A stretch of 64,000 bases of DNA from Eledone cirrhosa (lineage: Eukaryota), in NCBI GenBank assembly GCA_964016885.1, contig OZ024741.1:339078001-339142000 (forward strand), written 5' to 3'. Positions 1 through 49,716 of this stretch are shown one piece after another. Position 1 is the first letter of the stretch, and the number at the start of each line of letters is the position of its first letter. Made by a program: the position numbers and the translations under genes. The notes below the pieces were generated by a model. It saw nothing but the letters and a program-made list of their open reading frames with translations. It was not told the origin of the DNA and searched no databases.

Positions 1-3000
1 TAATATAGCAGAGTTAGGGTGGGGGTGAGGTAATACAGTTATAATATAGCAGATGTAGGGGGGGGGGTGAGGCGATACAGTTATAATATGACAGAGATAG
101 GGTGGGGTGAGGTAATACAGTTATAATATGACAGAGATAGGGTGGGGTGAGGTAATACAGTTATAATATGGCAGAGGTAGGGTGGGGCTGAGGCAATACA
201 GTTATAATATGACAGAGATAGGATGGGGGTGAGGTAATACAGTTATAATATAGCAGATGTAGGATGGGGGTGAGGTAATATAGTTATAATATAGCAGATG
301 TAGGGTGGGGGTGAGGCGATACAGTTATAATATGACAGAGATAGGGTGGGGTGAGGTAATACAGTTATAATATGACAGAGGTAGGGTTGGGGTGAGGTAA
401 TACAGTTATAATATGACAGAGGTAGGGTTGGGGTGAGGTAATACAGTTATAATATGACAGAGGTAGGGTGGGGGTGAGGTAATACAGTTATAATATGACA
501 GAGGTAGGGTGGGGGTGAGGTAATACAGTTATAATATGACAGAGGTAGGGTGGGGGTGAGGTAATACAGTTATAATATGACAGAGATAGGGTGGGGTGAG
601 GTAATACAGTTATAATATGACAGAGGTAGGGTTGGGGTGAGGTAATACAGTTATAATATGACAGAGATAGGGTGGGGTGAGGTAATACAGTTATAATATG
701 ACAGAGATAGGGTGGGGTGAGGTAATACAGTTATAATATGGCAGAGGTAGGGTGGGGGTGAGGTAATACAGTTATAATATGACAGAGATAGGGTGGGGGT
801 GAGGTAATACAGTTATAATATGACAGAGGTAGGGTGGGGGTGAGGTAATACAGTTATAATATGACAGAGATAGGGTGGGGGTGAGGTAATACAGTTATAA
901 TATGGCAGAGGTAGGGTGGGGGTGAGGTAATACAGTTATAATATGACAGAGATAGGGTGGGGTGAGGTAATACAGTTATAATATGACAGAGGTAGGGTGG
1001 GGGTGAGGTAATACAGTTATAATATGACAGAGATAGGGTGGGGGTGAGGTAATACAGTTATAATATGACAGAGATAGGGTGGGGGTGAGGTAATACAGTT
1101 ATAATATGGCAGAGGTAGGGTGGGGGTGAGGTAATACAGTTATATTATGACAGAGATAGGGTGGGTGTGAGGTAATACAGTTATAATATGGCAGAGGTAG
1201 GGTGGGGGTGAGGTAATACAGTTATAATATGGCAGAGATTGGGTGGGGTGAGGTAATACAGTTATAATATGACAGAGATAGGGTGGGGTGAGGTAATACA
1301 GTTATAATATGACAGAGATAGGGTGGGGGTGAGGTAATACAGTTATAATATGGCAGAGGTAGGGTGGGGGTGAGGTAATACAGTTATAATATGACAGAGA
1401 TAGGGTGGGGGTGAGGTAATACAGTTATAATATGGCAGAGTTAGGGTGGGGTGAGGTAATACAGTTATAATATGGCAGAGGTAGGGTGGGGGTGAGGTAA
1501 TACAGTTATAATATGGCAGAGATAGGGTGGGGGTGAGGTAATACAGTTATAATATAGCAGATGTAGGGTGGGGGTGAGGCGATACAGTTATAATATGACA
1601 GAGATAGGGTGGGGTGAGGTAATACAGTTATAATATGGCAGAGGTAGGGTGGGGTGAGGTAATACAGTTATAATATGACAGAGATAGGGTGGGGGTGAGG
1701 TAATACAGTTATAATATGGCAGAGGTAGGGTGGGGTGAGGTAATACAGTTATAATATGGCAGAGGTAGGGTGGGGCTGAGGCAATACAGTTATAATATGA
1801 CAGAGGTAGGGTGGGGTGAGGTAATACAGTTATAATATGGCAGAGGTAGGGTGGGGGTGAGGTAATACAGTTATAATATGGCAGAGTTAGGGTGGGGTGA
1901 GGTAATACAGTTATAATATGGCAGAGGTAGGGTGGGGGTGAGGTAATACAGTTATAATATGACAGAGATAGGGTGGGGGTGAGGTAATACAGTTATAATA
2001 TAGCAGATGTAGGGTGGGGGTGAGGCGATACAGTTATAATATGACAGAGATAGGGTGGGGTGAGGTAATACAGTTATAATATGGCAGAGGTAGGGTGGGG
2101 TGAGGTAATACAGTTATAATATGACAGAGATAGGGTGGGGGTGAGGTAATACAGTTATAATATGGCAGAGGTAGGGTGGGGTGAGGTAATACAGTTATAA
2201 TATGGCAGAGGTAGGGTGGGGCTGAGGCAATACAGTTATAATATGACAGAGGTAGGGTGGGGTGAGGTAATACAGTTATAATATTGCAGAGGTAGGGTGG
2301 GGGTGAGGTAATACAGTTATAATATGGCAGAGGTAGGGTGGGGGTGAGGTAATACAGTTATAATATGACAGAGGTAGGGTTGGGGTGAGGTAATACAGTT
2401 ATAATATGGCAGAGATAGGGTGGGGTGAGGTAATACAGTTATAATATGGCAGAGATAGGGTGGGGTGAGGTAATACAGTTATAATATGGCAGAGGTAGGG
2501 TGGGGGTGAGGTAATACAGTTATAATATGACAGAGGTAGGGTGGGGGTGAGGTAATACAGTTATAATATGGCAGAGGTAGGGTGGGGGTGAGGTAATACA
2601 GTTATAATATGACAGAGGTAGGGTGGGGGTGAGGTAATACAGTTATAATATGGCAGAGATAGGGTGGGGGTGAGGTAATACAGTTATAATATGGCAGAGA
2701 TAGGGTGGGGTGAGGTAATACAGTTATAATATGGCAGAGGTAGGGTGGGGTGAGGTAATACAGTTATAATATGGCAGAGGTAGGGTGGGGGTGAGGTAAT
2801 ACAGTTATAATATGGCAGAGGTAGGGTGGGGTGAGGTAATACAGTTATAATATGGCAGAGGTAGGGTGGGGGTGAGGTAATACAGTTATAATATGGCAGA
2901 GGTAGGGTGGGGGTGAGGTAATACAGTTATAATATGGCAGAGGTAGGGTGGGTTTGAGGTAATACAGTTATAATATGGCAGAGGTAGGGTGGGGTGAGGT

Positions 3001-3862
3001 AATACAGTTATAATATGGCAGAGGTAGGGTGGGGGTGAGGTAATACAGTTATAATATGGCAGAGGTAGGGTGGGGTGAGGTAATACAGTTATAATATGGC
3101 AGAGGTAGGGTGGGGTGAGGTAATACAGTTATAATATGACAGAGATAGGGTGGGGTGAGGTAATACAGTTATAATATGACAGAGATAGGGTGGGGTGAGG
3201 TAATACAGTTATAATATGGCAGAGGTAGGGTGGGGGTGAGGTAATACAGTTATAATATTGCAGAGGTAGGGTGGGGTGAGGTAATACAGTTATAATATGG
3301 CAGAGGTAGGGTGGGGTGAGGTAATACAGTTATAATATGACAGAGGTAGGGTGGGGTGAGGTAATACAGTTATAATATGACAGAGATAGGGTGGGGTAAG
3401 GTAATACAGTTATAATATGGCAGAGGTAGGGTGGGGTGAGGTAATACAGTTATAATATGACAGAGGTAGGGTGGGGTGAGGTAATACAGTTATAATATGG
3501 CAGAGGTAGGGTGGGGGTGAGGTAATACAGTTATAATATGGCAGAGGTAGGGTGGGGTGAGGTAATACAGTTATAATATGACAGAGGTAGGGTGGGGTGA
3601 GGTAATACAGTTATAATATGACAGAGATAGGGTGGGGTGAGGTAATACAGTTATAATATGGCAGAGGTAGGGTGGGGTGAGGTAATACAGTTATAATATG
3701 ACAGAGATAGGGTGGGGTGAGGTAATACAGTTATAATATGGCAGAGGTAGGGTGGGGTGAGGTAATACAGTTATAATATGACAGAGGTAGGGTGGGGTGA
3801 GGTAATACAGTTATAATATGACAGAGGTAGGGTGGGGTGAGGTAATACAGTTATAATATGGC
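1..3862 (+). repeat. 40-41 bp G-rich minisatellite, ~95 copies, runs off the left edge
   Basis: Unit GAGGTAATACAGTTATAATATG(A/G)CAGAG(A/G)TAGGGTGGG(G)GT repeated head-to-tail with few variants. Confidence 0.98.
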
Positions 3863-5073: not shown

Positions 5074-5326
5074 CATATATATAAACATATATATATATAT
5101 ATATATATATATTTCGTTTCTGAATTTGTTTAGCAAGATTCTTTATCTGAAATCGTGTGTTGAAACCGATATTGTTATACTTTGGGAGGGTCATGTTGCC
5201 AATAAGAAACACACGCACCAGTAACTTTCACTTCAGTTTATTATATATTTATAAATTTACAAATTTATAAATTTATAAATTTCTGGTTGGTTGGTTGGTT
5301 CCACCACCAGATAGTTGTTTATATAT

Positions 5327-5371
5327 AGTCATAGTCCTTTCGTCACACACTCTGTGACCTCTTCAGTGACT
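5327..5371 (-). ncRNA. Hammerhead ribozyme (inverted-arm copy of the Penelope HHR)
   Basis: Reverse complement of 8455-8499. Confidence 0.8.
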
Positions 5372-5968
5372 GGGGATTCCTTTCTTTGTTTCTGTGCCTC
5401 TCCTTTGTTCTGTCCTACGCCATTTTGTTTCTGTGTGTGTGTTGTGTGCTCAGTCTGCGTATGCGCCACATCCGGGTGTCTGTGTGTGTTTATGTTCATT
5501 TATCTATTTGTTTATTTATTTATTTATTTACATGTTACTGGTTGGTTGTTTGTTCTATGTGTGTGTGTGTTTTCATTTTGTCCTTAATTGTAAGTTGTGA
5601 TGTTGTTGTTCCACTCATATTTTCTATTTAATTTTGGTTGTAATTCTTTTATGTTTATTGCCTCTGTAATTTGTCTAAACATTGCATCTTTTCTGTGTGT
5701 AGATTCTATTTTTATTTCTATGTTCTCTAATTTACCCTTGTGTTCTATCTTAGCATGTTGGTAGAGTACAGATGATTCTTTATTATCTTGAAGGTCTCGC
5801 CAGTGTTCATTTATCCGTTCCCCTATACTACGAGCTGTCTCACCTATGTACACTATATTTTTGTCTCTACATTGTCATTCAGTACATCTTACACTACATT
5901 TCTAGTTTTACAGTTAATATGGGGGCTTATTTTACAGGTTATACATTTCTTATCTATACATGAGGGTC

Positions 5969-8242
5969 GATGAACAAACAGAAGCACAATTTAGTATAGC
6001 TAGATCCGAACTTAGAAATATTATAGAACAGTATAGCAAGAAGCATAATAGAATGGAGGCCCAGCAACTGGGAGAAAAATCTGCAAATGGCTTGCGTAAG
6101 CTCATGCAGCGCTCATGTAATGGAGAGATAGCATGCTTTCCAACAGACAAGTCTGGCAGAATGTCGGTCGACAGCCTGCCAAACTACATCCAGGCAATGC
6201 AACCCACATCACTAACACAAGAGAGGTAACACCACAGGAGCATGAGGATAGAGAAAAAGCCCTCAATGCCCATATGGTGATGTGGACGAATATAATGCAG
6301 CCCAACAAAAGGACTGCCAACAACTTCCAGGCCTGGAACAATGACGTGCCGGCGTTGTATGGGCTTCGAAAAGACCATAAAACGGGCTGTGAGACCCTGT
6401 CACGGGACCACCAACACGGCCAGTCTGTCTAGCTAACATTGCTAGTAACTACAGACTGTCCTACTTCCTCTCCCTGATCATACGCCCCATCATTGAAATG
6501 TCCCCAGATGTATGTGACAGCACGGAAGACCACCTCAGCAGAATCGGCGTGAGTAACCGATCTGGGGACCTAACAAACTGCATAATAGGCAGTATGGATG
6601 TTGTGTCCCTGTATCCATCTATTGACGTGGATTTTGCTGTGGAGAAATGCGTAGAAATGATCAGTGAGAGCAAGGTTGAGTTCCGTGTGATTGATACCAG
6701 TGAGCTGGGACTTCTACTTAAGCTTACCTATAATAATAGTTACCTAGACACATATGACCTTAGCAACCTGTGCCCTACAAGACCAGCAAGAGGCAGACCA
6801 CCTACCATTACCTCAATGGCCAAGAAAACCCACACAGATAGATGGAACGGGTGGACCAGAGCCATACGGACACCCGAAAACCACGATGAACTGAAGAAAA
6901 TGATTGCACATGCGGTAGGGGCCAGCATAAAACTAACCCTTAAGGAACATATGTTCAAATTTAATGGAAAAACATATGCCCAAGAGGAAGGAGCAGCCAT
7001 TGGTATTAGCATTGCAGGCGACATAGCTAACTTATTCATGGTATGGTGGGACAGTAGACTTAAACTTAAACTTAAAGAACAATTAGAAGACCCCTTAACC
7101 CTGATAATGTACTCCCGCTACGTAGATGATATAAACATCGTAGTTAAGACACCCCCACTAGAGAACAGTCAGGAACTAGAGAAAAACACAATGGAAAGCA
7201 TTCAGCAAATAGCAAACTCCATCCACCAGAGCATTAGAGTTACTATAGACTACCCAAGTAGACACCCCAACCATCGATTACCTGTACTAGACACAGAGCT
7301 CTGGTTAGATACAATTAACAACAAAAAACAAATCCTCCATTCCCATTATGCCAAACCCATGACTTCCAAACATCTGATCCACCGAAACTCGGCCATTTCG
7401 GACTATACCAAAATCAACATACTGATTGCGGATTTGGTACGGGTGATGAGAAATGTGTCCCGCATGTGTAACCCCGAAGAACTAGAGAGACACATACAAC
7501 ACTTCATCCACCGTATGCAGTTCTCTGGCTACAATCAGAGAGATAGAATCAGAGTGTATAGAGGAGCCAGAACCAAATGGGAAAAAATGGTAAATAATGA
7601 CATAAATGGGACCTGCCCCTTGTATAGGAGCAAATTTTGGAATAGAATAGAAAGAACTAGGAACAAGGCTAATAGAATAAACTCATGGTATGATAGCAAT
7701 AAATACCAGAGTGTAATGTTCATCGATACAACCCCTAGAGGCGAACTAGCCTACAAATTTAGAAGGGCCCTAAATAAACATAAACTCAATATTAAGATAG
7801 TAGAAAGACCAGGTACCTCTGTAAAAACATTTATTAGCAAGACATACCCTTTTCAAAGACCCTCATGTATAGATAAGAAATGTATAACCTGTAAAATAAG
7901 CCCCCATATTAACTGTAAAACTAGAAATGTAGTGTAAGATGTACTGAATGACAATGTAGAGACAAAAATATAGTGTACATAGGTGAGACAGCTCGTAGTA
8001 TAGGGGAACGGATAAATGAACACTGGCGAGACCTTCAAGATAATAAAGAATCATCTGTACTCTACCAACATGCTAAGATAGAACACAAGGGTAAATTAGA
8101 GAACATAGAAATAAAAATAGAATCTACACACAGAAAAGATGCAATGTTTAGACAAATTACAGAGGCAATAAACATAAAAGAATTACAACCAAAATTAAAT
8201 AGAAAATATGAGTGGAACAACAACATCACAACTTACAATTAA
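5969..8242 (+). pseudogene. Penelope-like RT + Cys linker + GIY-YIG endonuclease, frameshifted
   Basis: RT motifs TDKSG, LYGLRKDHK, PTRPVC, GSMDVVSLYPSI, QEEGAAIG, YSRYVDD, LPVLD. Linker CIDKKCITC..NCKTRNVV; endonuclease YIGETAR..ERINEH..LYQH..RQITEAINI..PKLN. Frameshifts near 6205, 6393 and 7935. Confidence 0.93.
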
Positions 8243-8454
8243 GGACAAAATGAAAACACACACACACATAGAACAAACAACCAACCAGTAACATGTAAAT
8301 AAATAAATAAATAAACAAATAGATAAATGAACATAAACACACACAGACACCCGGATGTGGCGCATACGCAGACTGAGCACACAACACACACACAGAAACA
8401 AAATGGCGTAGGACAGAACAAAGGAGAGGCACAGAAACAAAGAAAGGAATCCCC

Positions 8455-8499
8455 AGTCACTGAAGAGGTCACAGAGTGTGTGACGAAAGGACTATGACT
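8455..8499 (+). ncRNA. Type I minimal hammerhead ribozyme in the Penelope 3' region
   Basis: AGTCA-CTGAAGA-g-GTCACA gagtg TGTGAC-GAAA-GGAC-TA-TGACT: stem I AGTCA/TGACT, 6-bp stem II, minimal stem III. Confidence 0.82.
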
Positions 8500-8657
8500 A
8501 TATATAAACAACTATCTGGTGGTGGAACCAACCAACCAACCAGAAATTTATAAATTTATAAATTTGTAAATTTATAAATATATAATAAACTGAAGTGAAA
8601 GTTACTGGTGCGTGTGTTTCTTATTGGCAACATGACCCTCCCAAAGTATAACAATAT

Positions 8658-9122: not shown

Positions 9123-9192
9123 AATAATATATATATATACATATATATCTATATATACATACACATATATATATATACATATATATATATAT
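8658..9192. repeat. (TA)n-rich microsatellite
   Basis: Seen directly; separates the Penelope element from the retrozyme array. Confidence 0.95.
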
Positions 9193-9358
9193 ATTAGAAA
9201 TTGGAATAAATGCTCTGAAATAGCGATATATATATGAATATAGACATAGAATATTCGAAAATATTCTGTATGTTTATAATAAACATTTTGAAGACCTAAT
9301 CGCTATAGAATAGAATACGTCACGTATTACAATTAGATTCTCGATAAAAGCAAGGGAA

Positions 9359-9401
9359 GTAATCTACGCGTTTCATTCTTGTTAGAATTCATCAGGACTA
9401 C
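9359..9401 (-). ncRNA. Type I hammerhead ribozyme, inverted copy
   Basis: Reverse complement of 9717-9759. Confidence 0.9.
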
Positions 9402-9716
9402 ATATCCAGTGCTTTTATCGAGCTAACAAGAATGAAACGCGTAGATTACTTCCCTTGCTTTTATCGAGAATCTAATTGTAATACGTGACGTATTCTATTC
9501 TATAGCGATTAGGTCTTCAAAATGTTTATTATAAACATACAGAATATTTTCGAATATTCTATGTCTATATTCATATATATATCGCTATTTCAGAGCATTT
9601 ATTCCAATTTCTAATTTCTGCCGGACCGGCAACCGCTCTTTCAAACCAGTTCCTGTACACAGCTAAGTATTCTATAAGTCTCTAGCTGTGTCATTCTCGA
9701 TAAAAGCACTGGATAT

Positions 9717-9759
9717 GTAGTCCTGATGAATTCTAACAAGAATGAAACGCGTAGATTAC
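9717..9759 (+). ncRNA. Type I hammerhead ribozyme (first of 7 complete copies, repeating every 310 bp to 11577-11619)
   Basis: GTAGTC-CTGATGA-ATTC taacaa GAAT-GAAA-CGCG-TA-GATTAC; predicted cleavage after GUA at 9753. Stem I is extended by a 16-bp helix, 9693-9708 with 9766-9781. Confidence 0.93.
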
Positions 9760-11867
9760 TTCCCTTGCTTTTATCGAGAATCTAATTGTAATACGTGACG
9801 TATTCTATTCTATAGCGATTAGGTCTTCAAAATGTTTATTATAAACATACAGAATATTTTCGAATATTCTATGTCTATATTCATATATATATCGCTATTT
9901 CAGAGCATTTATTCCAATTTCTAATTTCTGCCGGACCGGCAACCGCTCTTTCAAACCAGTTCCTGTACACAGCTAAGTATTCTATAAGTCTCTAGCTGTG
10001 TCATTCTCGATAAAAGCACTGGATATGTAGTCCTGATGAATTCTAACAAGAATGAAACGCGTAGATTACTTCCCTTGCTTTTATCGAGAATCTAATTGTA
10101 ATACGTGACGTATTCTATTCTATAGCGATTAGGTCTTCAAAATGTTTATTATAAACATACAGAATATTTTCGAATATTCTATGTCTATATTCATATATAT
10201 ATCGCTATTTCAGAGCATTTATTCCAATTTCTAATTTCTGCCGGACCGGCAACCGCTCTTTCAAACCAGTTCCTGTACACAGCTAAGTATTCTATAAGTC
10301 TCTAGCTGTGTCATTCTCGATAAAAGCACTGGATATGTAGTCCTGATGAATTCTAACAAGAATGAAACGCGTAGATTACTTCCCTTGCTTTTATCGAGAA
10401 TCTAATTGTAATACGTGACGTATTCTATTCTATAGCGATTAGGTCTTCAAAATGTTTATTATAAACATACAGAATATTTTCGAATATTCTATGTCTATAT
10501 TCATATATATATCGCTATTTCAGAGCATTTATTCCAATTTCTAATTTCTGCCGGACCGGCAACCGCTCTTTCAAACCAGTTCCTGTACACAGCTAAGTAT
10601 TCTATAAGTCTCTAGCTGTGTCATTCTCGATAAAAGCACTGGATATGTAGTCCTGATGAATTCTAACAAGAATGAAACGCGTAGATTACTTCCCTTGCTT
10701 TTATCGAGAATCTAATTGTAATACGTGACGTATTCTATTCTATAGCGATTAGGTCTTCAAAATGTTTATTATAAACATACAGAATATTTTCGAATATTCT
10801 ATGTCTATATTCATATATATATCGCTATTTCAGAGCATTTATTCCAATTTCTAATTTCTGCCGGACCGGCAACCGCTCTTTCAAACCAGTTCCTGTACAC
10901 AGCTAAGTATTCTATAAGTCTCTAGCTGTGTCATTCTCGATAAAAGCACTGGATATGTAGTCCTGATGAATTCTAACAAGAATGAAACGCGTAGATTACT
11001 TCCCTTGCTTTTATCGAGAATCTAATTGTAATACGTGACGTATTCTATTCTATAGCGATTAGGTCTTCAAAATGTTTATTATAAACATACAGAATATTTT
11101 CGAATATTCTATGTCTATATTCATATATATATCGCTATTTCAGAGCATTTATTCCAATTTCTAATTTCTGCCGGACCGGCAACCGCTCTTTCAAACCAGT
11201 TCCTGTACACAGCTAAGTATTCTATAAGTCTCTAGCTGTGTCATTCTCGATAAAAGCACTGGATATGTAGTCCTGATGAATTCTAACAAGAATGAAACGC
11301 GTAGATTACTTCCCTTGCTTTTATCGAGAATCTAATTGTAATACGTGACGTATTCTATTCTATAGCGATTAGGTCTTCAAAATGTTTATTATAAACATAC
11401 AGAATATTTTCGAATATTCTATGTCTATATTCATATATATATCGCTATTTCAGAGCATTTATTCCAATTTCTAATTTCTGCCGGACCGGCAACCGCTCTT
11501 TCAAACCAGTTCCTGTACACAGCTAAGTATTCTATAAGTCTCTAGCTGTGTCATTCTCGATAAAAGCACTGGATATGTAGTCCTGATGAATTCTAACAAG
11601 AATGAAACGCGTAGATTACTTCCCTTGCTTTTATCGAGAATCTAATTGTAATACGTGACGTATTCTATTCTATAGCGATTAGGTCTTCAAAATGTTTATT
11701 ATAAACATACAGAATATTTTCGAATATTCTATGTCTATATTCATATATATATATATATATATGTGTGTATAATATCTTGCATGTGTGCGTTTGTGTAGCT
11801 TTTGTGTATAAGTGTGCTGTATCTGTATGAATTGCACTGTATTTGTGTGCATTCTATATTTGCCCTA

Positions 11868-15453: not shown

Positions 15454-15458
<5 letters not shown>

Positions 15459-15664
15459 AACGAGTAGGACCCCGACGGCTGAGCTCAAGCCGTTTCGACG
15501 GCTAATTCTGGACTAAAAAAAGAGCCCAGTCAAGAATTAGCCGCCGAAACGGCTTGAACTCAGCCGTCGGGGTCCTACTCGTTCCTATTACCCACTCTAC
15601 TACCCTAAGTATTGAGTACTTTGGTGCGTTATGGTCCACCTGGTTCCTTACCACATTTCCTCCG

Positions 15665-15668
<4 letters not shown>
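15454..15668. mobile_element. Short fold-back insertion in (TA)n with ~60-bp GC-rich inverted arms
   Basis: 15454-~15515 is the reverse complement of ~15528-15588 with 2-3 mismatches; the right arm continues to ~15668. Confidence 0.7.
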
Positions 15669-15715
<47 letters not shown>

Positions 15716-15718
<3 letters not shown>

Positions 15719-16468
15719 GTATATATAGTGTATTTTGCAATACACTGTATGCTTAATTAAAAGCATTTTGAAGACTTTACACTATTGTTTTAAAGTAGTG
15801 ACTATGTCACTTACTTCTATTTTCAGCAACAAGAGGAGATAAGCTGACAGAGCTCTGTTTTGTACTGTTGGTACTTATCAAAGCCTAGCACTCCTCCTGT
15901 TTGCTGAAAATTATGAATGTTGGATTCTTATAGAATTCCAGTAATAATCAGGAACTGATTATACAGAGCGGTTGCCGGCCCAGCAAAAATGTTCAGCAAA
16001 CAGGAGTGCTAGGCTTTTATAAGTACCAACAGTACGAAACAGAGCCCTGTCAGCTTATCTCCCCTTGTTTGCTGATCGAAGTAAGTGACATAGTCATTAT
16101 TTTAAAACAATAGCGTAAGGTCTTCAAAATGCTTTTAATTAAGCATACAGTGTATTGCAAAATACACTATATATACATTCATATATATATCGCTATTTCA
16201 GAGCACCAATTCTAATTTTCGATTTTTGCTGGACCGGCAACCGCTCTGTATAATCAGTTCCTGATTATTAATGGAATTCTATAAGAATCCAACATTCATA
16301 ATTTTCAGCAAACAGGAGAAGTGCAAGGCTTTGATAAGTACCAACAGTACGAAAGAGAGCTCTATCAGCTTATCTCCACTTGTTTGCTGAAAATAGAAGT
16401 AAATGACATATATACACTCTATATACATTCATATATATATCGCTATTTCAGAGCACCAATTCTAATTT
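15716..16468 (+). mobile_element. Retrozyme sister family (~312-bp monomer): inverted partial copy plus ~1.5 direct monomers
   Basis: Shares TATATATATCGCTATTTCAGAGCA, GGACCGGCAACCGCTCT and GGTCTTCAAAATG with the 310-bp array. TTCAGCAAACAGGAG recurs at 15992 and 16304. Three HHR-like motifs. Confidence 0.85.
16326..16371 (+). ncRNA. Hammerhead variant with UUGAUAA core (U3-A8); other copies at 16011-16056 (+) and 15841-15886 (-)
   Basis: Consensus of the 3 copies: AGGCT-TTGATAA-GTAC caaca GTAC-GAAA-CAGAGCTCTG-TC-AGCTT. Confidence 0.78.
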
Positions 16469-16665
16469 TATATATATATATATATATAGATATAGATATA
16501 ATATATATATATATACATAGATATAAAATATATATATATATATATACATAACCCTTGCAAGCATGGAAAAGCGGATGTAAAATGATTATGATGATATATA
16601 TATATATACATAGATTTAATATATATATATATACATAGATTTAATATATATATATATATACATAG

Positions 16666-16728
<63 letters not shown>

Positions 16729-16740
16729 AAATAGAACTTT

Positions 16741-16774
<34 letters not shown>

Positions 16775-16853: not shown

Positions 16854-16918
16854 TATTTTGTCTGATGAAGGCATACCATAATTTAATGTGGTATCCCTGA
16901 GATATGTATAATGAAATA
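16854..16918 (+). ncRNA. Degenerate hammerhead (GAAA->GAGA), related to the 15278 family
   Basis: TATTTTGT-CTGATGA-AGGcATACCATA...TGTGGTATcCCT-GAGA-TATGTA-TA-ATGAAATA. Confidence 0.7.
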
Positions 16919-17181: not shown

Positions 17182-17801
17182 CATACAGGTACACATATAT
17201 ATATGTACGTATCAGTTTAGCGGACGTTTATTATAACGCTCGCTTTGTCCGTTTGTAAACAAACTGACAGCCTGATTTATGCCGTACGGTGTTAAGGCAA
17301 CCTCGTCACCTTTTTGTTCAACACTGACACAGGAACGATGTACTAGTTTCAAGCTTGTTAGCTATCGTCAGCACCGTATACCCTTCTGCCAGATGGTTGA
17401 ACGTTCGAAAGTATATACTTTCCTTATGAAAATTAACGGCTGAGCAGCCTAATTTGCATATCGAGTGAGTTCAGTCGGCCAGGCGCACCGAAAACGATAA
17501 GTTGGAAAAGAATGAAGGGTATACGGTGCTGACGATAGCTAACAAGCTTGAAACGAGTACATCGTTCCTGTGTCAGTGTTGAACAAAAAGGTGACGTGGT
17601 TGCCTTAACACCGTACGGCATAAATCAGGCTGTCAGTTTGTTTACAAACGGACAAAGCGAGCGTTATAATAAACGTCCGCTAAACTGATACGTACATATA
17701 TATATGTGTACCTGTATGTATATATATATATATATATATATATGCATCCATGTTACTGTACGTCTGTATACATATATGTATGTACGTATACATACATACT
17801 T

Positions 17802-25479: not shown

Positions 25480-25480
<1 letters not shown>
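24174..25480 (+). repeat. (GTT)n-based degenerate trinucleotide array
   Basis: Seen directly. Confidence 0.95.
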
Positions 25481-25522
<42 letters not shown>

Positions 25523-25681
25523 CAGCAGTAGTAGTAGTAGTAGTGGTAGTGGTAGTGGTAGTAGTAGTAGTAGTAGTAGCAGCAGCAGAAGCAGTAGTAG
25601 TAGTAGTAGTAGTAGGAGCAGTATAGTAGTACTGATAGCAGCAGTAGTAGTAGTAGTAGTAGTAGCAGTAGCAGGAGCAGC

Positions 25682-25716
<35 letters not shown>

Positions 25717-25771
25717 CAGCAGTAGTAGTAGTAGTAGCAGCAGCAGTAGCAGTAGTAGTAGTAGTAGCAGC

Positions 25772-25806
<35 letters not shown>

Positions 25807-25828
25807 CAGTAGTAGTAGTAGTAGCAGC

Positions 25829-25863
<35 letters not shown>

Positions 25864-25891
25864 TGGTAGTAGTAGTAGTAGTAGTAATAGT

Positions 25892-25929
<38 letters not shown>

Positions 25930-26031
25930 TAGTAGTAGCAGTATAGTAGTACTAATAGCAGCAGCAGTAGTAGTAGTAGTAGCAGTAGCAGTAGCAGTAG
26001 TAGTAGTAGTAGTAGTAGCAACAGAAGCAGC

Positions 26032-26066
<35 letters not shown>

Positions 26067-26094
26067 CAGCAGTAGTAGCAGTAGTAGTAGTAGT

Positions 26095-26153
<59 letters not shown>

Positions 26154-26224
26154 CAGCAGCAGTAGTAGTAGTAGTAATAGTAGCAATAGCAGCAGCAGTA
26201 GTAGTAGTAGTAGTGGGTAGTAGT

Positions 26225-26258
<34 letters not shown>

Positions 26259-26279
26259 ATAGTAGTAGTAGTAGCAGTG

Positions 26280-26342
<63 letters not shown>

Positions 26343-26714
26343 ATAGCAGCAGTAGTAGTAGTAGTAGTAGTGGTAGTAGTAGTAATAATAATAGCAGCAG
26401 TAGTAGTAATAGTAGTAGCAGCAGTAGTAGTAGTAGTAGTAGCAGCAGCACTAGTAGTGGTAGTAGTAGTAGTAGTAGTAGTAGTAGCAGTAGTAGTAGT
26501 AGTAGCAGCAGTAGTAGTAGTATTAGTGGTAGTGGTAGTAGTAGTAGTAGTAATAATAGCAGCAGTAGTAGTAATAGTAGTAGCAGCAGTAGTAGTAGTA
26601 GTAGTAGCAGCAGTAGCAGCACTAGTAGTAGTAGTAGTAGTAGTAGTAGTAGCAATAGTAGTAGTAGTAGCAGCAGTAGTAGTAGTAGTATTAGTGGTAG
26701 TGGTAGTGGTAGTG

Positions 26715-26754
<40 letters not shown>

Positions 26755-26775
26755 CTGCAGCAGCAGCAGCAGCAC

Positions 26776-26811
<36 letters not shown>

Positions 26812-27101
26812 CAGCAGCAGTAGTAGTAGTAGTGGGTAGTAGAAGCAGTAGCAGCAGTAGCAGCAGCAGCAGTAGTAGTAGTAGTAGTAGCAGCAGCAGT
26901 AGTAGTAGTAGTAGTAGTAGAAGTAGAAGCAGCAGTAGCAGAAGTAGTAGTAGTAGCAGCAGTAGCAGCAGTAGTATTAGTAGTAGTAGCAGCAGTAGTA
27001 GTAGCAGTGGTAGTAGTAGTAGTAGTAGTAGTAGTAGCAGTAGCAGCAGTAGTATTAGTAGTAGTAGTAGTAGCAGCAGCAGTAGTAGCAGTAGTAGTAG
27101 C

Positions 27102-27139
<38 letters not shown>

Positions 27140-27159
27140 CAGTAGTAGTAGTAGTAGCT

Positions 27160-27190
<31 letters not shown>

Positions 27191-27225
27191 CAGCAGTAGT
27201 AGTAGTATTAGTGGTAGTGGTAGTG

Positions 27226-27258
<33 letters not shown>

Positions 27259-27294
27259 ATAGCAGCAGTAGTACTAGTAGTATTAGTGGTAGTG

Positions 27295-27334
<40 letters not shown>

Positions 27335-27401
27335 CAGCAGCAGTAGTAGTAGTAGTAGCAGTAGCAGTAGCAGTAGTAGTAGTAGTAGCAACAGTAGCAG
27401 C

Positions 27402-27436
<35 letters not shown>

Positions 27437-27488
27437 CAGCAGTAGTAGTAGTAGTAGCAGCAGTAGTAGCAGTAGTAGTCGTAGTAGC

Positions 27489-27535
<47 letters not shown>

Positions 27536-27615
27536 CAGCAGCAGTAGTAGTAGTAGTAGTAATAGTAGCAATAGCAGCAGCAGCAGTAGTAGTAGTAGTG
27601 GGTAGTAGTAGCAGT

Positions 27616-27653
<38 letters not shown>

Positions 27654-27774
27654 TAGTAGCAGCAGCAGTAGTAGTAGTAGTAGTAGAAGTAGCAGCAGCA
27701 GTAGCAGTAGTAGTAGTAGTAGTAGCAGCAGTAGCAGCAGTAGTATTAGTAGTAGTAGCAGCAGTAGTAGTAGC

Positions 27775-27820
<46 letters not shown>

Positions 27821-27998
27821 ATAGCAGCAGTAGTAGTAGTAGTAGTGGTAGTAGTAGTAGTAATAATAGCAGCAGTAGTAGTAATAGTAGTAGCAGCAGT
27901 AGTAGTAGTAGTAGCAGCAGTAGTAGTAGAATTGTATTAGTGGTAGTGGTAGTGGTAGTAGTAGTAGTAGTAGTAGTAGTAGCATCAGTAGTAGTAGC

Positions 27999-28042
<44 letters not shown>

Positions 28043-28060
28043 CAGCAGCAGCAGCAGCAC

Positions 28061-28105
<45 letters not shown>

Positions 28106-28393
28106 CAGTAGTAGTAGTAGTGGGTAGTAGTAGCAGTAGCAGCAGTAGCAGCAGTAGTAGTAGTAGTAGTAGTAGCAGCAGCAGTAGTAGTAGTAGTAGT
28201 AGAAGTAGCAGCAGCAGTAGCAGAAGTATTAGTAGTAGTAGCAGCAGTAGTAGTAGCAGAAGTAGTAGTAGTAGCAGCAGTAGCAGCAGTAGTATTAGTA
28301 GTAGTAGCAGCAGTAGTAGTAGCAGAAGTAGTAGTAGTAGCAGCAGTAGCAGCAGTAGTATTAGTAGTAGTAGCAGCAGTAGTAGTAGCAGTG

Positions 28394-28424
<31 letters not shown>

Positions 28425-28488
28425 CAGTAGCAGCAGTAGTATTAGTAGTAGTAGTAGTAGCAGCAGCAGTAGTAGCAGTAGTAGTAGC

Positions 28489-28538
<50 letters not shown>

Positions 28539-28540
28539 CT

Positions 28541-28583
<43 letters not shown>

Positions 28584-28681
28584 CAGCAGTAGTAGTAGTA
28601 TTAGTGGTAGTGGTAGTGGTAGTAGTAGTAGTAGTAGTAGTAGTAATAGCAGCAGTAGTAGTAGTAGTATTAGTGGTAGTG

Positions 28682-28718
<37 letters not shown>

Positions 28719-28782
28719 CAGCAGCAGTAGTAGTAGTAGTAGTAGCAGTAGCAGTAGTAGTAGTAGTAGCAACAGTAGCAGC

Positions 28783-28829
<47 letters not shown>

Positions 28830-28890
28830 CAGCAGTAGTAGTAGTAGTAGCAGCAGTAGCAGCAGTAGTAGCAGTAGTAGTAGTAGTAGC

Positions 28891-28928
<38 letters not shown>

Positions 28929-29001
28929 CAGCAGCAGTAGTAGTAGTAGTAGTAATAGTAGCAATAGCAGCAGCAGTAGTAGTAGTAGTGGGTAGTAGTA
29001 G

Positions 29002-29046
<45 letters not shown>

Positions 29047-29136
29047 TAGTAGCAGCAGTAGTAGTAGTAGTAGTAGAAGTAGCAGCAGCAGTAGCAGTAG
29101 TAGTAGTAGTAGTAGCAGCAGTAGCAGCAGTAGTAT

Positions 29137-29168
<32 letters not shown>

Positions 29169-29195
29169 ATAGCAGCAGTAGTAGTAGTAGCAGTG

Positions 29196-29243
<48 letters not shown>

Positions 29244-29395
29244 ATAGCAGCAGTAGTAGTAGTAGCAGTGGTAGTAGTAGTAATAGTAGTAGCAGCAGTA
29301 GTAGTAGTAGTAGCAGCAGTAGTAGTAGTAGTATTAGTGGTAGTGATAGTGGTAGTAGTAGTAGTAGTAGTAGTAGTAGCAGCAGTAGTAGTAGC

Positions 29396-29447
<52 letters not shown>

Positions 29448-29569
29448 ATAGCAGCAGTAGTAGTAGTAGTAGTAGCAGAGCAGCAGCACTAGTAGTAGTA
29501 GTAGTAGTAGTAGCAGTAGTAGTAGTAGTAGCAGCAGTAGTAGTAGTAGTATTAGTGGTAGTGGTAGTG

Positions 29570-29606
<37 letters not shown>

Positions 29607-29805
29607 AACTAGCAGCAGCAGTAGTAGTAGTAGTATCAGTAGTAGCAGTAGTAGTAGTAGTAGCAGCAGCAGTAGTAGTAGTAGTAGCAGTAGTAGCAGT
29701 AGTAGTATTAGTGGTAGTGGTAGTGGTAGTAGTAGTAGCAGTAGCAGCAGTAGTATTAGTAGTAGTAGTAGTAGTAGCAGCAGCAGTAGTAGCAGTAGTA
29801 GTAGC

Positions 29806-29849
<44 letters not shown>

Positions 29850-29917
29850 CAGTAGTAGCAGTAGTAGTAGTACTAGTAGCAGTAGTAGCAGTAGTAGTAT
29901 TAGTGGTAGTGGTAGTG

Positions 29918-29951
<34 letters not shown>

Positions 29952-30667
29952 CAGTAGTAGTAGCAGTAGTAGCAGTAGTAGTAGTAGTAGCAGCAGCAGT
30001 AGTAGTAGTAGTAGCAGTAGTAGTAGTAGTAGTAGTAGTAGCAGCAGCAGTAGTAGTAGTAGTAGCAGTAGTAGCAGTAGTAGTATTAGTGGTAGTGGTA
30101 GTGGTAGTAGTAGTAGTAGTAGTAGTAGTAGAACTAGCAGCAGCAGTAGTAGTAGTAGTAGTAGCAGTAGCAGTAGTAGCAGTAGTAGTAGCAGTAGTAG
30201 TAGTAGTAGTAGTAGTAGCAGTAGTAGTAGTAGTAGTAGTAGCAGCAGTAGTAGTAGTAGTAGTAGTAGTAGCAGTAGTAGCAGTAGTAGTAGTAGTAGC
30301 AGCAGCAGTAGTATTAGTATTAGTAGTAGTAGCAGTAGCAGCAGTAGTATTAGTAGTAGTAGTAGTAGTAGCAGCAGCAGTAGTAGCAGTAGTAGTAGCA
30401 GTAGTAGTAGTAGTAGTAGTATCAGTAGTAGTAGTAGTAGTAGCAGCAGCAGTAGTAGTAGTAGTAGCAGTAGTAGCAGTAGTAGTAGTAGCTGTAGTAG
30501 TAGCAGTAGTAGCAGTAGTAGTAGCAGCAGCAGCAGTAGTAGCAGTAGTAGTAGCAGTAGTAGTAGTAGTAGTAGTAGTATCAGTAGTAGCAGTAGTAGT
30601 AGTAGTAGCAGCAGCAGTAGTAGTAGTAGTAGCAGTAGTTGCAGTAGTAGTAGTAGTGGGTAGTAGT

Positions 30668-30726
<59 letters not shown>

Positions 30727-30784
30727 CAGCAGCAGTAGTATTAGTAGTAGTAGTAGTAGTAGCAGTAGTAGCAGTAGTAGTAGC

Positions 30785-30828
<44 letters not shown>

Positions 30829-30875
30829 CAGTAGTAGTAGCAGCAGCAGTAGTAGTAGTAGTAGCAGTAGTAGTA
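25481..30875 (+). repeat. 5.4-kb (AGT/AGC)n array with higher-order duplication
   Basis: Rare marker GTGGGTAGT recurs at ~26213, 26832, 27598, 28120, 28988 and 30656. Confidence 0.95.
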
Positions 30876-37765: not shown

Positions 37766-40035
37766 GTTTAACGTCCGTGTTCCACGCTTGCATGGGTTTG
37801 GACGGGGGTTTTCCCACTTGAGGCAAGAGTGGTTATCTTGCTCGCATAGGACTATCTGGCAGGTTTTCTACAGCTGGATGCCCTTCCTAACACCAACCAC
37901 ATTTACAGTGTGGGGCTGGGAGGTTTTTACCGTGTTGCCTACACGGCCACATTACAGCGTGAACTGTGTGTTTTTTTATCGTGACACCTACACGATCTCA
38001 TTTGTTTCGGCCTGGATGTTGTGGCACCAACATAACTTTACATTGAAAGGGGCGGTGTGGATGGGGTGGGGGTGGTGGGACGGGGGTGTATTTTGTTAGA
38101 GATGCCTACTGACTGTAGTAGGTTTTACTTCGTATTTAGGTAAGGCGGGTCTTCTCTATTACTGAGTACCGCCAAAGGTCTCGGTCCAGTGACATTGTCT
38201 TGGTGAGGTGTAAGTGTGTGAGGTCGGAATTTATCAGCTCGTCCCAGGTTTTTCTGGGTCTGCCTATTCCGTGGCTACCGTCTATCTTTATTGCCCTGCA
38301 TGCGCATCACGTGACCATACCAACGTAGCCTTCTCTCGAGTAAACAACATCTGATCCCTCTTATTTCTAATTTTTTCTTTAGTTCGTTTATGCTTTGCCG
38401 TTCACGTATATTACTATTACACATCCAGCGGAGCATGCAAGCTTCGTTTCTCTCTAGTCTGCGTATATCCTCTGCACACAATGCCCAGGTCTCACTGCCA
38501 TGCCACATTGCTGTTCGTATGCAGGCATCGTACAACCTGCCTTTCATTTTTAGGGAGAACCCTTTAGCGGCTAATAGCGGTATAAGCTCTCTGAACTTTT
38601 TCCATCCAGTTCTGACTCTAGCTACTGTACTTTCAGAGCACCCTCCACCACTGCTGATTTTGTCACCCAGGTAACGGAAGCTGTCCACTATTTCTATAGA
38701 ACCCTCTGCGCAGTTGAAAGAGCTAGTATTTTGTGGGCACTTGCTGCTACTTATTGCCCCAGAGCACCGGCCACATGTAAAATCTATGTTCTTAGTTAGC
38801 TTACCTGTGATCCCACTACATCTTTTATGCACCCATACTTTCCATTTGGGACACAAAATGGAGTTTCTACCTACGCCTTTTCTACACACTGAGCATGGCC
38901 ACTTCCCGGAGGGGACCGCCGCCTTATTTTCTTTCTTACAAACTAGAACTTTAGTCTTAGCCAGGTTAATTTTAAGGCCTTTTGATTCTAGGCCGTGCTT
39001 CCATGTTTGGAATTTCTTCTCTAGCTCGGCCAATGATTCAGCTATGAGCGTTAGATCATCTGCGTATAGGAGTTCCCATGGGCAGCCGGTCTTGAACTCC
39101 ACTGTTATAGCCTGGAGGGCAATAATAAATAGTAGGGGGCTAAGAACAGAGCCCTGATGAACACCAACTTTTACGCTAAACTCTTCACTATATTCGTTGT
39201 TAATTCTAACCTTGCTGACTGTTTCTTTATACATGGCTTGTATAGCTCTCACAAGCCATTCATCAACACCTAGTTTTCTGAGAGCCCACCAGATAATGGG
39301 GCATGGGATTCTGTCAAAGGCTTTCTCCAAGTCAACAAAAGCTAAGTATAGGGGTTTACTTTTAGCTAGGTACTTCTCCTGTAGTTGTCGTACAATGAAA
39401 AGAGCGCCTGTGGTACTTTTACCTGACACAAACCCGAACTGCATTTCATCTAGCTAAATTCGCTCACTGATTAGTTGTGCTATTACTTTTTCTGTGACCT
39501 TCATGACCTGGTCAATTAATTTAATGCCTCTATAGTTTCCCCTATCTAGGGAATCTCCTTTACCCTTGTAGCAGTTAACGATGCTGCTGCTATGCCAGTC
39601 CGCGGTACAACCCCATTCAGTATGACTTGGTTTACTATCCGGGTGACCATAGTGTGTCCTACTGTTCCAGATGCTTTCAGCATTTCAGCAACTATTTCCG
39701 AAGGCCCAGCCACCTTACCCGTCTTCATATCTTTGATTGCCTTACTTATTATACTACCTTCGACTAACACTGCTGGTCCCTCTATTGGGTCGATGTGGGG
39801 GAGACTGTCTTTCTCCCATTTATTCTCCTCATTTAGTAGCCTTTCATAGTGACACTTCCAAGCTACCTTCTTATCAGCGTCGGTGATGGCAAGTACGCCG
39901 TCATCATTAAGTACACACTTCTCCCCGACAATATCACGGTTTTCCTTGACACATTGCCTAGCAATCCTGAACACCTCACGTTTTTGGTCCTCGCGTTGTA
40001 GAACATGCTTGAACTTTCTTTCCTCTGCTTCCCTT

Positions 40036-40037
<2 letters not shown>
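37733..40037 (-). mobile_element. RTE LINE, 5'-truncated, frameshifted
   Basis: ORFs 39546-39974 and 38275-39444 (FVDLEKAFD, GVHQGSVLSP, LYADD, RYLG); (GAT)n tail; (TA)n flanks. Confidence 0.95.
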
Positions 40038-40087
<50 letters not shown>

Positions 40088-40221
40088 CATATTTACAATG
40101 ATTTTTTCTGTTAGATTGGGTTGCTTGCGTTGTACCTGCTTATACAATGTTACTGAACACAGTTTCTAAATTCTATCTACATTACATCTTGTAATGGTAA
40201 TCACTCATATTTGTGTGTGTA

Positions 40222-44756: not shown

Positions 44757-45953
44757 AGGGAAATGGCCATGCTCAGTTTGTAGGAAAGGAGTAGGCAGAA
44801 ATTCCATTTTATGTTCCAAATGAAAAGTATGTGTACATAAAAGATGTAGTGGGATCACAGGTAAACTATCTAAGAACGCAGACTTTATATGTGGCTGATG
44901 TTCAGGTGCAATAAGTAGCAAGTGTCCACAGGATACTAGCTCCTTCTATTGCCCAGATGGTTCTATAGAAATAGTGGACACTTTCCGTTACCTAGGTAAC
45001 GAAATCAGCAATGGTGGAGGGTGTTCTGAAAGTACAGTAGCTAGAGTCAGAACAGGATGGAAAAAGTTCAGAGAGCTTATACCACTATTGGCCACTAAAG
45101 GTTTCTCTCTAAAAATAAAAGGCAGATTGTATGATGCCTGTATACGAACAGCAATGCTACATGGCAGTGAGACATGGGCATTACGTGCAGAGGACCTGTG
45201 TAGACTGGAAAGGAACGAAGCATGCATGCTCCATTGGATGTGTAATAGTAATATACATGAACGGCAAGGCATAAATGAACTAAGTGAGAAATTAAAAATA
45301 AGAGGGATCAGATGCTGTTTACTTGAGAGAAGACTACGTTGGTATGGTCATGTGATGCGCATGAAAGACGACAGCTGTATAAAAAAGTGCAGGGCGATCA
45401 AAATTGATGGTAGTTACGGAGTAGGTAGAACCAGAAAAACCTATGACGATCTGATAAATTTCGACCTTACACACTTGCGCCTCTCTAAGACAATGTCACT
45501 GGACCAAGATCTTTGGTGCTACGCAGTAATACAGAAGACCCGCCTTGCCTATGTACAAAGCGAAACCTACAGTCAGTAGGCACCTCTTAACCAATATACA
45601 CCCCAATCCACTACCCCTACCCTATCCTCCCACTCCCACCAACATCACCCTCTCTCTGTAAAGTTGGTACCACAACATCCTGTCCAAATAAATGAGATAA
45701 TGAGATCAAGATCGTGTAGGTGTCACAACCAAAAAACACACAGTCCATGCTGTAATGTGGTTGTGTAGGTAACACGGTAAAAAGTTCTCACTTCCACACT
45801 GTAAATGTGGTTGGTGTTAGGAAGAGCATCTAGCTGTAGAAAACCTGCCAGATAGTCCTATATGAGCGAGACACGGTCACCCGACCAATCTTGCCTCAAG
45901 TGGGACAACTCCCGTCTAACCCATGCTAGCGTGGAAGATGGACGTTAAACGAA

Positions 45954-45986
<33 letters not shown>
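44757..45986 (+). mobile_element. RTE LINE 3' fragment
   Basis: Begins at GKWPC; ORF 44974-45579; (GAT)n tail. Confidence 0.93.
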
Positions 45987-46032
45987 ATATATATATATAT
46001 AAATATATATACATACACATATATATATATAT

Positions 46033-49288: not shown

Positions 49289-49690
49289 TATTATAAGGAT
49301 AAGGAACAAGAATTCAGTGTTTTATCATAACATATTTAATATATAATATATGTTTTGTATATGAATTCGTCCGGAGATGAATTCATATACAAAACATATC
49401 TGACGACCTTTCGATTACAGAGTCAGATTCGATCTATAATAGGTCTTGCCTTGAGGTGATCCATAGTGAAACATATGTAATATGTTATTAAATAAGTTAT
49501 GATGAAACACTGAATTCTTGTCCGTTATCCTTATAATATTATAGTCTGCTCTGCGTGAGCATCGAGTGCTCAACCGGCATACCACCTACGGACGAATTTT
49601 TTATGGAACTATACAACTATATATACATGCATATATTGGATCGTCGTAGAAGTTTTTTTTTTCTACAAATTTCATACTTGACGACCCAAT
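49288..49690 (+). mobile_element. Fold-back hammerhead element in (TA)n
   Basis: ~49288-49330 is the reverse complement of ~49497-49541; central hairpin at ~49348-49399. Confidence 0.72.
49393..49486 (+). ncRNA. Type I hammerhead with ~60-nt stem II insertion
   Basis: AACATAT-CTGACGA-(61 nt)-GAAA-CATATG-TA-ATATGTT; perfect 7-bp stem I and palindromic stem III; stem II pairing not resolved. Confidence 0.72.
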
Positions 49691-49716
49691 ATATATATGT
49701 ATATATATATATATTT

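Follow-up and report, generated by a model that had tools for sequence, protein, structure and literature searches.

A decayed head-to-head hammerhead repeat in Eledone cirrhosa belongs to a family with both C3-G8 and U3-A8 cores

Introduction

Natural covariation of the hammerhead core from C3-G8 to U3-A8 has been reported, and such pairs are stated to be active in vitro (Perreault 2011, PMC3088659). About 1,300 minimal U3-A8 hammerheads have been tied to the Cercyon Penelope-like elements of Schistosoma mansoni, and the idea of cleavage in multimers with protection of monomeric circles is also published there (PMC4209133). Animal retrozymes have been described as derived from Penelope-like elements (Li, Clavereau and Pollet 2026, 10.64898/2026.07.22.740005). 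Endonuclease-bearing Penelope-like elements insert into AT-rich or (TA)n sites and leave a 5'-truncated, inverted arm and a tail on one side only (PMC8557442, PMC11167929). In vitro, this tail is as long as the interval that separates two internal sites at which reverse transcription begins, and the Poseidon element inserts RNA without ribozyme cleavage (PMC11167929).

Here we describe a hammerhead repeat at positions 15705-16469 of a 64,000-nucleotide stretch of Eledone cirrhosa DNA (the window), together with its genomic family. Whereas the U3-A8 examples described in Perreault 2011 (PMC3088659) are isolated, here the switch lies within one amplifying family in which all states were counted. 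As in Cercyon (PMC4209133), there is core covariation, more than 1,000 motifs per genome, a Penelope link and a proposed activity of the dimer. Cercyon motifs, as presented in that account, are minimal, sit in pseudo-LTRs, and are mostly single and heterogeneous; the family described here differs in its 4-bp stem II, canonical-type loop II and bulge, non-coding unit, and C3-G8 sister subfamilies ~95% identical to the U3-A8 ones. Like metazoan non-LTR retrozymes (PMC7229834; 10.64898/2026.07.22.740005), the units are tandem, non-coding, ~300 bp and low in GC, with one type I hammerhead each, a palindromic stem III and a proposed dependence on Penelope (PMC7229834). Unlike the retrozymes described there, they are mostly U3-A8, have a 4-bp stem III within a 12-nt palindrome and a ~20-bp stem I extension, and form mostly short two-armed insertions rather than long arrays. 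With endonuclease-bearing Penelope-like elements, as characterised in PMC8557442 and PMC11167929, they share the inverted arm, the one-sided two-site tail and the (TA)n targets, but they have no ORF and a tail of ~27-29 nt instead of 30-40.

In a literature search that left supplements aside (those of PMC4209133 and PMC7229834 may show more U3-A8), we found no published U3-A8 retrozyme and no published within-family switch. The core swap and the element type are already published; what the present analysis adds of value is a set of matched subfamilies, a switch that happened more than once, and a series of palindromes.

Results and Discussion

The locus and its hammerheads

The locus at 15705-16469 is an inverted arm fused head-to-head to ~1.5 forward units between (TA)n tracts. 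In our genome-wide set it bears the label L001, which stands for window coordinates plus an offset of 14487. Hammerhead positions are numbered as in PMC4209133 and by general convention. The features of the locus, and of two related elements in the window, are:

5100-8654: Penelope-like element, frameshifted, with a reverse transcriptase ORF at 6393-7937 and a GIY-YIG piece at 7952-8239
9182-11752: 310-bp C3-G8 hammerhead array, 7.5 identical units (9423-11752) and a short inverted arm
15666-15715, no strand: left (TA)n target tract
15705-15990, minus strand: inverted left arm, monomer positions 235-313 and then 1-203
15820-15910, minus strand: hammerhead copy 1 and stem I extension, core U3-A9 at 15881-15875
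15988-16300, plus strand: first forward unit, 313 bp here and ~315 bp in its subfamily
15990-16077, plus strand: hammerhead copy 2, U3 at 16016, A8 at 16021, C17 at 16051
16110-16263, plus strand: conserved core outside the ribozyme, with 80% identity to the 310-bp array
16300-16469, plus strand: partial second forward unit, ~70-bp internal deletion after 16410
16302-16393, plus strand: hammerhead copy 3, U3 at 16331, A8 at 16336, C17 at 16366
16469-16771, no strand: right TA-rich tract

The 3' end of the inverted arm (monomer ~203) abuts the (TA)n tract, and the partial second unit ends at monomer 232, with a 29-nt "tail" absent from the left arm. The conserved core contains two fixed 3' end sites (monomer ~203 and 229-232) and probably serves as the recognition signal for a Penelope-type reverse transcriptase.

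U3 and A8 are present in all three hammerhead copies, as the original prediction had it, and the lesions that it named are real. Copy 1 (U3 at 15881, minus strand) carries G12A at 15861 and retains a perfect 12-nt stem III palindrome, with a predicted cut after C17 at 15846. Copy 2 has G5U at 16018 and a U-to-C change at 16046 in the stem III palindrome; in copy 3 the stem III pair 15.2-16.2 is broken (16355, 16364) and the cut site is AUC. None of the three should be fully active, in agreement with the earlier view that the locus is decaying, each copy being damaged. G5U had been called private, and is also found in L022. The GUC site then assigned to every copy occurs in two of the three, copy 3 being the exception, and the palindromic stem III holds as a consensus but not for each copy: CAGAGCUCUG is exact in one of three, and copy 2 reads CAGAGCCCUG. 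The copies differ from their subfamily majority at 6/286, 6/229 and 8/189 columns, and have no rare variants in common.

The proposed monomer length of 312 bp stems from small deletions in copy 2; core-to-core spacing at the locus is 315 bp. A retrozyme-type element related to the 310-bp array, as first suggested, is what we find, with ~154 bp of homology at 80% identity. This homology is not limited to the part outside the ribozyme, as had been stated: the two monomers are colinear throughout, ribozyme included but more diverged there. The array has the cut triplet GUA and a 6-nt palindrome as stem III. Directly left of the locus, between TA tracts, lies a 130-bp inverted-repeat element (15458-15587), the left end of which recurs beside locus L013.

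Family size and core states

We searched the genome (3.0 Gb in 1,796 contigs) with an exact pattern in which positions 3, 7 and 8 were free, using the reversed pattern as control. This gave 1,034 matches spread over many contigs, against none for the control, so the family is dispersed. Position 3:8 was a Watson-Crick pair in 994 of the 1,034, with 697 U3-A8 and 297 C3-G8; C3-A8 and U3-G8 occurred 11 times each, and other states 18 times (by subtraction). A second exact pattern with a different stem II returned 412 further matches, among the first 100 listed of which 97 were U3-A8 and none C3-G8. Both totals count ribozyme motifs rather than loci and are lower bounds. The 22 mismatched 3:8 copies (C3-A8 or U3-G8) derive from mixed backgrounds, and private mutation rates led us to expect ~32; mismatched copies are fewer than neutral decay predicts, and therefore no mismatched lineage has been amplified. 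The counts support U3-A8 as the majority state of amplified subfamilies, not damage, and bear out the original reading of it as a compensatory state (697 of 1,034, with mismatched 3:8 states never amplified). The family is not uniformly U3-A8. Because the family contains C3-G8 subfamilies, a CUGANGA search finds part of it: the warning that such searches would miss this family applies to most copies (~4/5 of those matched), but not to the 297 findable C3-G8 copies. With CUGANGA descriptors, the retrozymes of this genome are undercounted ~4-5-fold.

Intact family copies have the type I hammerhead layout (3-9 box, GAAA box, NUH site and three helices), and hairpin z-scores were -5.1 to -8.4 in all six copies folded. 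Rfam searches of the whole window and of the locus gave no hammerhead among the matches listed. An intact U-A copy aligned to HH9, with its loop II and bulge pattern, at 25 bits (E 1.6e-4; gathering score 52), and an intact C-G copy to Hammerhead_1 at 14 bits (gathering score 34); the 310-bp array, at 23 bits, is also below the Rfam hammerhead gathering score. The second U3-A8 group includes a longer array, at G000:C2:208895101-208901180, with at least 9 matches ~320 bp apart or at multiples of that distance.

For alignment we used 129 loci (140 fetched, 11 overlapping ones dropped) and 354 profile matches, of which 233 rows covering the ribozyme were kept, including 1 outgroup. Six main subfamilies account for 189 rows; the 43 rows excluded comprise 29 in small clusters and 14 in two clusters that we dropped as antisense alignment artefacts. 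Two main subfamilies are C3-G8 and four are U3-A8, the window copies belonging to one of the latter. Mean divergence from the own majority is 2.7-3.7% across the six (below 1% in 4 of 189 rows), and 2.4% (25 rows) and 2.9% (11 rows) in the second U-A group. Judged by this mean decay of 2.4-3.7%, the last burst of the family is old, and the family is older than the 310-bp array, because the 7.5 units of the latter are identical.

The subfamilies differ at 26 of 94 columns in the ribozyme hairpin (~6 of the 26 reflecting a one-base indel shift) versus 13 of 221 outside it, and of 12 core columns only 3 and 8 vary across the six majorities. Being ~95% identical, the C3-G8 and U3-A8 subfamilies provide matched natural ribozymes for kinetics. 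The commonest private changes are C>T and G>A (28 and 27 per 1,000 sites). RNA editing as a driver is at most mildly indicated, by a small excess of A>G over T>C (11.9 vs 9.0 per 1,000, p 0.008). We rejected CpG decay as the origin of U3-A8, neither base sitting in a CpG in the main subfamilies, and we discarded the lower private mutation rate in the core (2.0% vs 3.2%) as evidence because most loci were chosen by the exact core pattern. Copies shared rare variants in 156 of 977 comparisons within a locus versus 390 of 41,960 between loci, which is as expected from, and would fit, copying from one template; later conversion could do the same. One arm at L002 (1293-1787, minus strand) joins a U-A-type unit to a C-G-type unit, which suggests a template switch between subfamilies.

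The stem III palindrome and proposed cleavage by the dimer

We consider it likely that the locus is a decayed, head-to-head, non-coding hammerhead repeat of 311-324 bp units, copied in trans into (TA)n by a Penelope-type reverse transcriptase/endonuclease, with U3-A8 as a functional compensatory core that is predicted to cleave mainly as a double hammerhead in tandem transcripts. The proposed course starts from two observations: the family holds C3-G8 and U3-A8 subfamilies without any amplified mismatched state, and stems II and III and the stem I extension changed between subfamilies with their pairs kept. In the unit or circle, the 5' strand of the palindrome is predicted to pair with stem I and core bases 3-5, turning the ribozyme off; in a tandem transcript, two palindromes would form a 12-bp duplex, freeing both cores and releasing unit-length RNA. 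By analogy with other retrozymes, the released unit would be ligated into a circle; a search of sequencing runs for the sequence listed three DNA-type runs from a single study and no RNA run. Reverse transcription would then start at two fixed internal sites ~27-29 nt apart, and starts from both sides of a break would yield two outward-facing arms. The predicted folding, off in the monomer and on in the tandem, matches the published idea of multimer cleavage (PMC4209133).

Stem III in this family is 4 bp within a 12-nt palindrome. In the U-A lineage the palindrome forms a series, from CAGAGCUCUG to CAGGGCUCUG to CAGGGCCUUG to CAAGGCCUUG (33 copies in 24 loci, in an order consistent with the tree). 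Its central four bases run AGCU to GGCU to GGCC and are self-complementary throughout, with an amplified G·U intermediate found in several loci. The centre is unpaired in the monomer yet kept self-complementary, which points to the double hammerhead; if the palindrome were corrected at the DNA level, its two halves should change together. The series makes the rule "off in circles, on in multimers" directly testable. In the C3-G8 subfamilies the centre is a GA/AG mismatch, and the duplex has -12.2 instead of -20.1 kcal/mol.

Folding predictions are consistent with this picture. In the single-unit fold, the palindrome 5' strand is predicted to pair with stem I and core bases 3-5, and the hammerhead fold of the monomer lies above the ensemble by 3.4-6.8 kcal/mol in four U-A majorities, 7.5 kcal/mol in the CAAGG group and 1.6-2.0 kcal/mol in the C-G majorities. 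Of eight natural U-A units folded as circles, seven had core bases 3-5 paired, each at P>=0.94. For tandems, the double hammerhead is the minimum-energy fold in five of six majorities and within 1.4 kcal/mol of it in the sixth. Of 30 natural tandem pairs with spacings of 311-324 bp, 12 are predicted to cross-pair; nine of the 30 have perfect palindromes in both units, and eight of these nine cross-pair at P>=0.96. No cross-pairing is predicted for the pair at the locus itself, and the measure says nothing about C3-G8 pairs, which have a central G·A mismatch. For the natural L206 pair, stem III is cross-paired in the minimum-energy fold, but stem II of copy 1 is left unformed. ViennaRNA omits tertiary contacts and Mg2+, and the monomer may therefore fold correctly; in the dimer, moreover, the long local stem I extension must exchange partners, a kinetic barrier outside the model. 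On these models we lean towards cleavage that depends on the dimer.

The main alternative keeps the element and the selection on its core, but has the monomer cleave, its 4-bp stem III and the tertiary contacts between loop II and stem I beating the competing helix, with the palindrome as a by-product. Stem III is indeed longer than the 1-2 bp typical of animal hammerheads (PMC4209133), the 25-bit alignment to HH9 takes in loop II and the bulge, and the C3-G8 subfamilies are just 1.6-2.0 kcal/mol from the hammerhead fold. The off helix, too, is weakly beyond chance: a 7-pair off helix arises in 6.5% of random palindromes, and most transitions would retain such a helix. We nevertheless regard cleavage by the monomer as unlikely, since U-A monomers are predicted to lie 3.4-7.5 kcal/mol from the hammerhead fold, and since bases that are loop in the monomer stayed self-complementary through an amplified G·U.

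Although we prefer dimer cleavage, we think it less likely than not that the off switch predicted in the monomer was itself selected. It is a speculative reading that the palindromic strand is a switch, which locks the core in the unit circle and unlocks it in the tandem, and that the 3:8 pair flipped with it, possibly from U-A back to C-G, keeping the strength of the lock workable. In modelled swaps, C3-G8 with a perfect palindrome was the most locked state in six of six backgrounds, and U3-A8 relieved that lock by ~2.6-3 kcal/mol. Predicted to be over-locked by 5.5-9.8 kcal/mol, the former combination is almost absent from the genome (3 matches, 2 of them from one internal duplication at L018); U3-A8 with a mismatched palindrome has 15 scattered matches. 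This association goes back to a single evolutionary event. If true, the switch reading would be the first worked-out reason for a change of the hammerhead core pair, and would bring evidence from genomic covariation that an animal retrozyme is processed by double hammerheads. The L018 duplication (1821-1920) is 31 bp long and joins stem III to the start of the core via common CUCUG letters.

Covariation and direction of the core switch

We tested pairing on 36 real copies, which were picked with a pattern and which also supplied the structure used for scoring. Paired cells made up 94.1%, versus 38-48% with slid partners. Two-sided changes occurred in four pairs (3:8, 10.1:11.1 and two in the stem I extension), a number that does not exceed shuffles. 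Stems II and III and the stem I extension change between subfamilies with pairing kept, and stem II is also found as GCAU/AUGC. The association of 3:8 counts is linkage by descent, because there was one event inside the family. Several independent covarying pairs, together with a second switch in a sister family, give good support for selection on the structure of the ribozyme. It is these, and not the three window copies, descended from one event, that sustain the original argument from covariation to selection.

The sister family (L141-L160) is older, at 7.9% from its own majority (18 rows). Its stems differ and its palindrome is short, and U3-A8 is found in 33 of 35 exact matches, the other two being U3-C8 arms of one insertion. 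In most of its copies the basal pair of stem II (10.1:11.1) is a C·A mismatch, with a compensatory change one or two pairs deeper in the stem. Scanning 626 kb for generic hammerheads brought up the second U-A group, but the unrelated families were too few to be tallied independently.

Trees of 42 and 52 selected copies require at least two 3:8 switches when trait columns are left out. A single U-A origin was rejected without these columns (p-AU 0.0098 and 0.024) and without the whole ribozyme (p-AU 0.0008), and was not rejected with the trait columns kept (p-AU 0.17). As to direction, one tree has U-A as a derived clade (support 95/94) and two nest C-G inside U-A, as a reversion; neither alternative was rejected (p-AU 0.33 and 0.28). 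Recombination between families is a possible alternative source of the pattern. The copy counts per state indicate that these mobile hammerheads of an animal keep the 3:8 pair with its bases swapped at least twice, which argues that cleavage mattered for spread, a question left open by in vitro work on Penelope.

We regard it as very unlikely that U3-A8 is a neutral passenger, namely two AT-biased transitions in a master copy whose reverse transcription in trans did not depend on cleavage. C>T and G>A do top the private changes, the switch inside the family was a single event, and hammerhead mutants did not lower insertion by the Poseidon protein in the in vitro assays described in PMC11167929; the sharing of rare variants within loci (156/977 vs 390/41,960) moreover suggests that mutated templates may be copied. 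Against this, the other 10 core columns are invariant in the subfamily majorities in a hairpin that changes at many columns around them, no mismatched 3:8 lineage was amplified, stem changes retain pairing, and the same double change recurs in the sister family.

Insertion architecture and the proposed Penelope link

We classified 136 insertions, and in 82 of them the arms are head-to-head, so that the two 3' ends face outward. In 40 of the 82 the ends fall into two classes, one at monomer 195-206 and one at 226-237; in 5 both ends belong to the same class, and in 37 at least one end lies elsewhere. The ends of the window insertion, at monomer 203 and 232, fit this two-site pattern. Complete monomers of 311-324 bp follow one another head to tail, low in GC and with one hammerhead each; we found no ORF of at least 120 aa inside the unit, and no reverse transcriptase or GIY-YIG ORF between units.

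The Penelope-like element at 5100-8654 has a tail on one side and an inverted arm of 806 bp, and it carries minimal C3-G8 hammerheads at 5366 (minus strand) and 8460 (plus strand). It belongs to a young, abundant Penelope family (150 of 150 scored candidates at >= 97%) with open frames of up to 1,167 aa outside the window, the reverse transcriptase and GIY-YIG matches of which fall below curated cut-offs. This element and 30 relatives gave only AT-rich matches to the unit. The flanks of 80 loci, masked and read by eye, contained dispersed repeats of unrelated kinds and no shared sequence that extended the unit; Penelope fragments in the flanks of 6 of the 80 looked incidental.

A further alternative denies the units the status of an independent, non-autonomous retrozyme and takes them for truncated pseudo-LTRs, left by an autonomous Penelope-like element yet to be found. 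We consider it scarcely tenable. The tail and inverted-arm layout is the same as in autonomous Penelope-like elements, a preprint derives frog retrozymes from pLTRs (10.64898/2026.07.22.740005), and our partner search was narrow (one Penelope family), but the units are joined head to tail as complete monomers, the masked flanks share no continuation from the unit, and the window Penelope element and its 30 relatives share AT-rich matches alone.

Other repeats in the window

CUGANGA...GAAA motifs of other families lie at 17371 (minus), 17529 (plus), 41826 (minus), 49177 (minus), 51729 (minus), 51918 (plus), 54814 (minus) and 15286 (plus); several form opposed pairs, and there is a similar degenerate motif near 16862. 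LINE-type reverse transcriptase copies with an inserted PHD-finger match occupy 38275-40139, 44899-48213 and 49537-51216. Long simple arrays extend over 1-3862 (95 copies of a 41-bp satellite), 25480-30875 (5.4 kb of (GTA)n) and 58196-62662 (4.5 kb of a 9-bp repeat).
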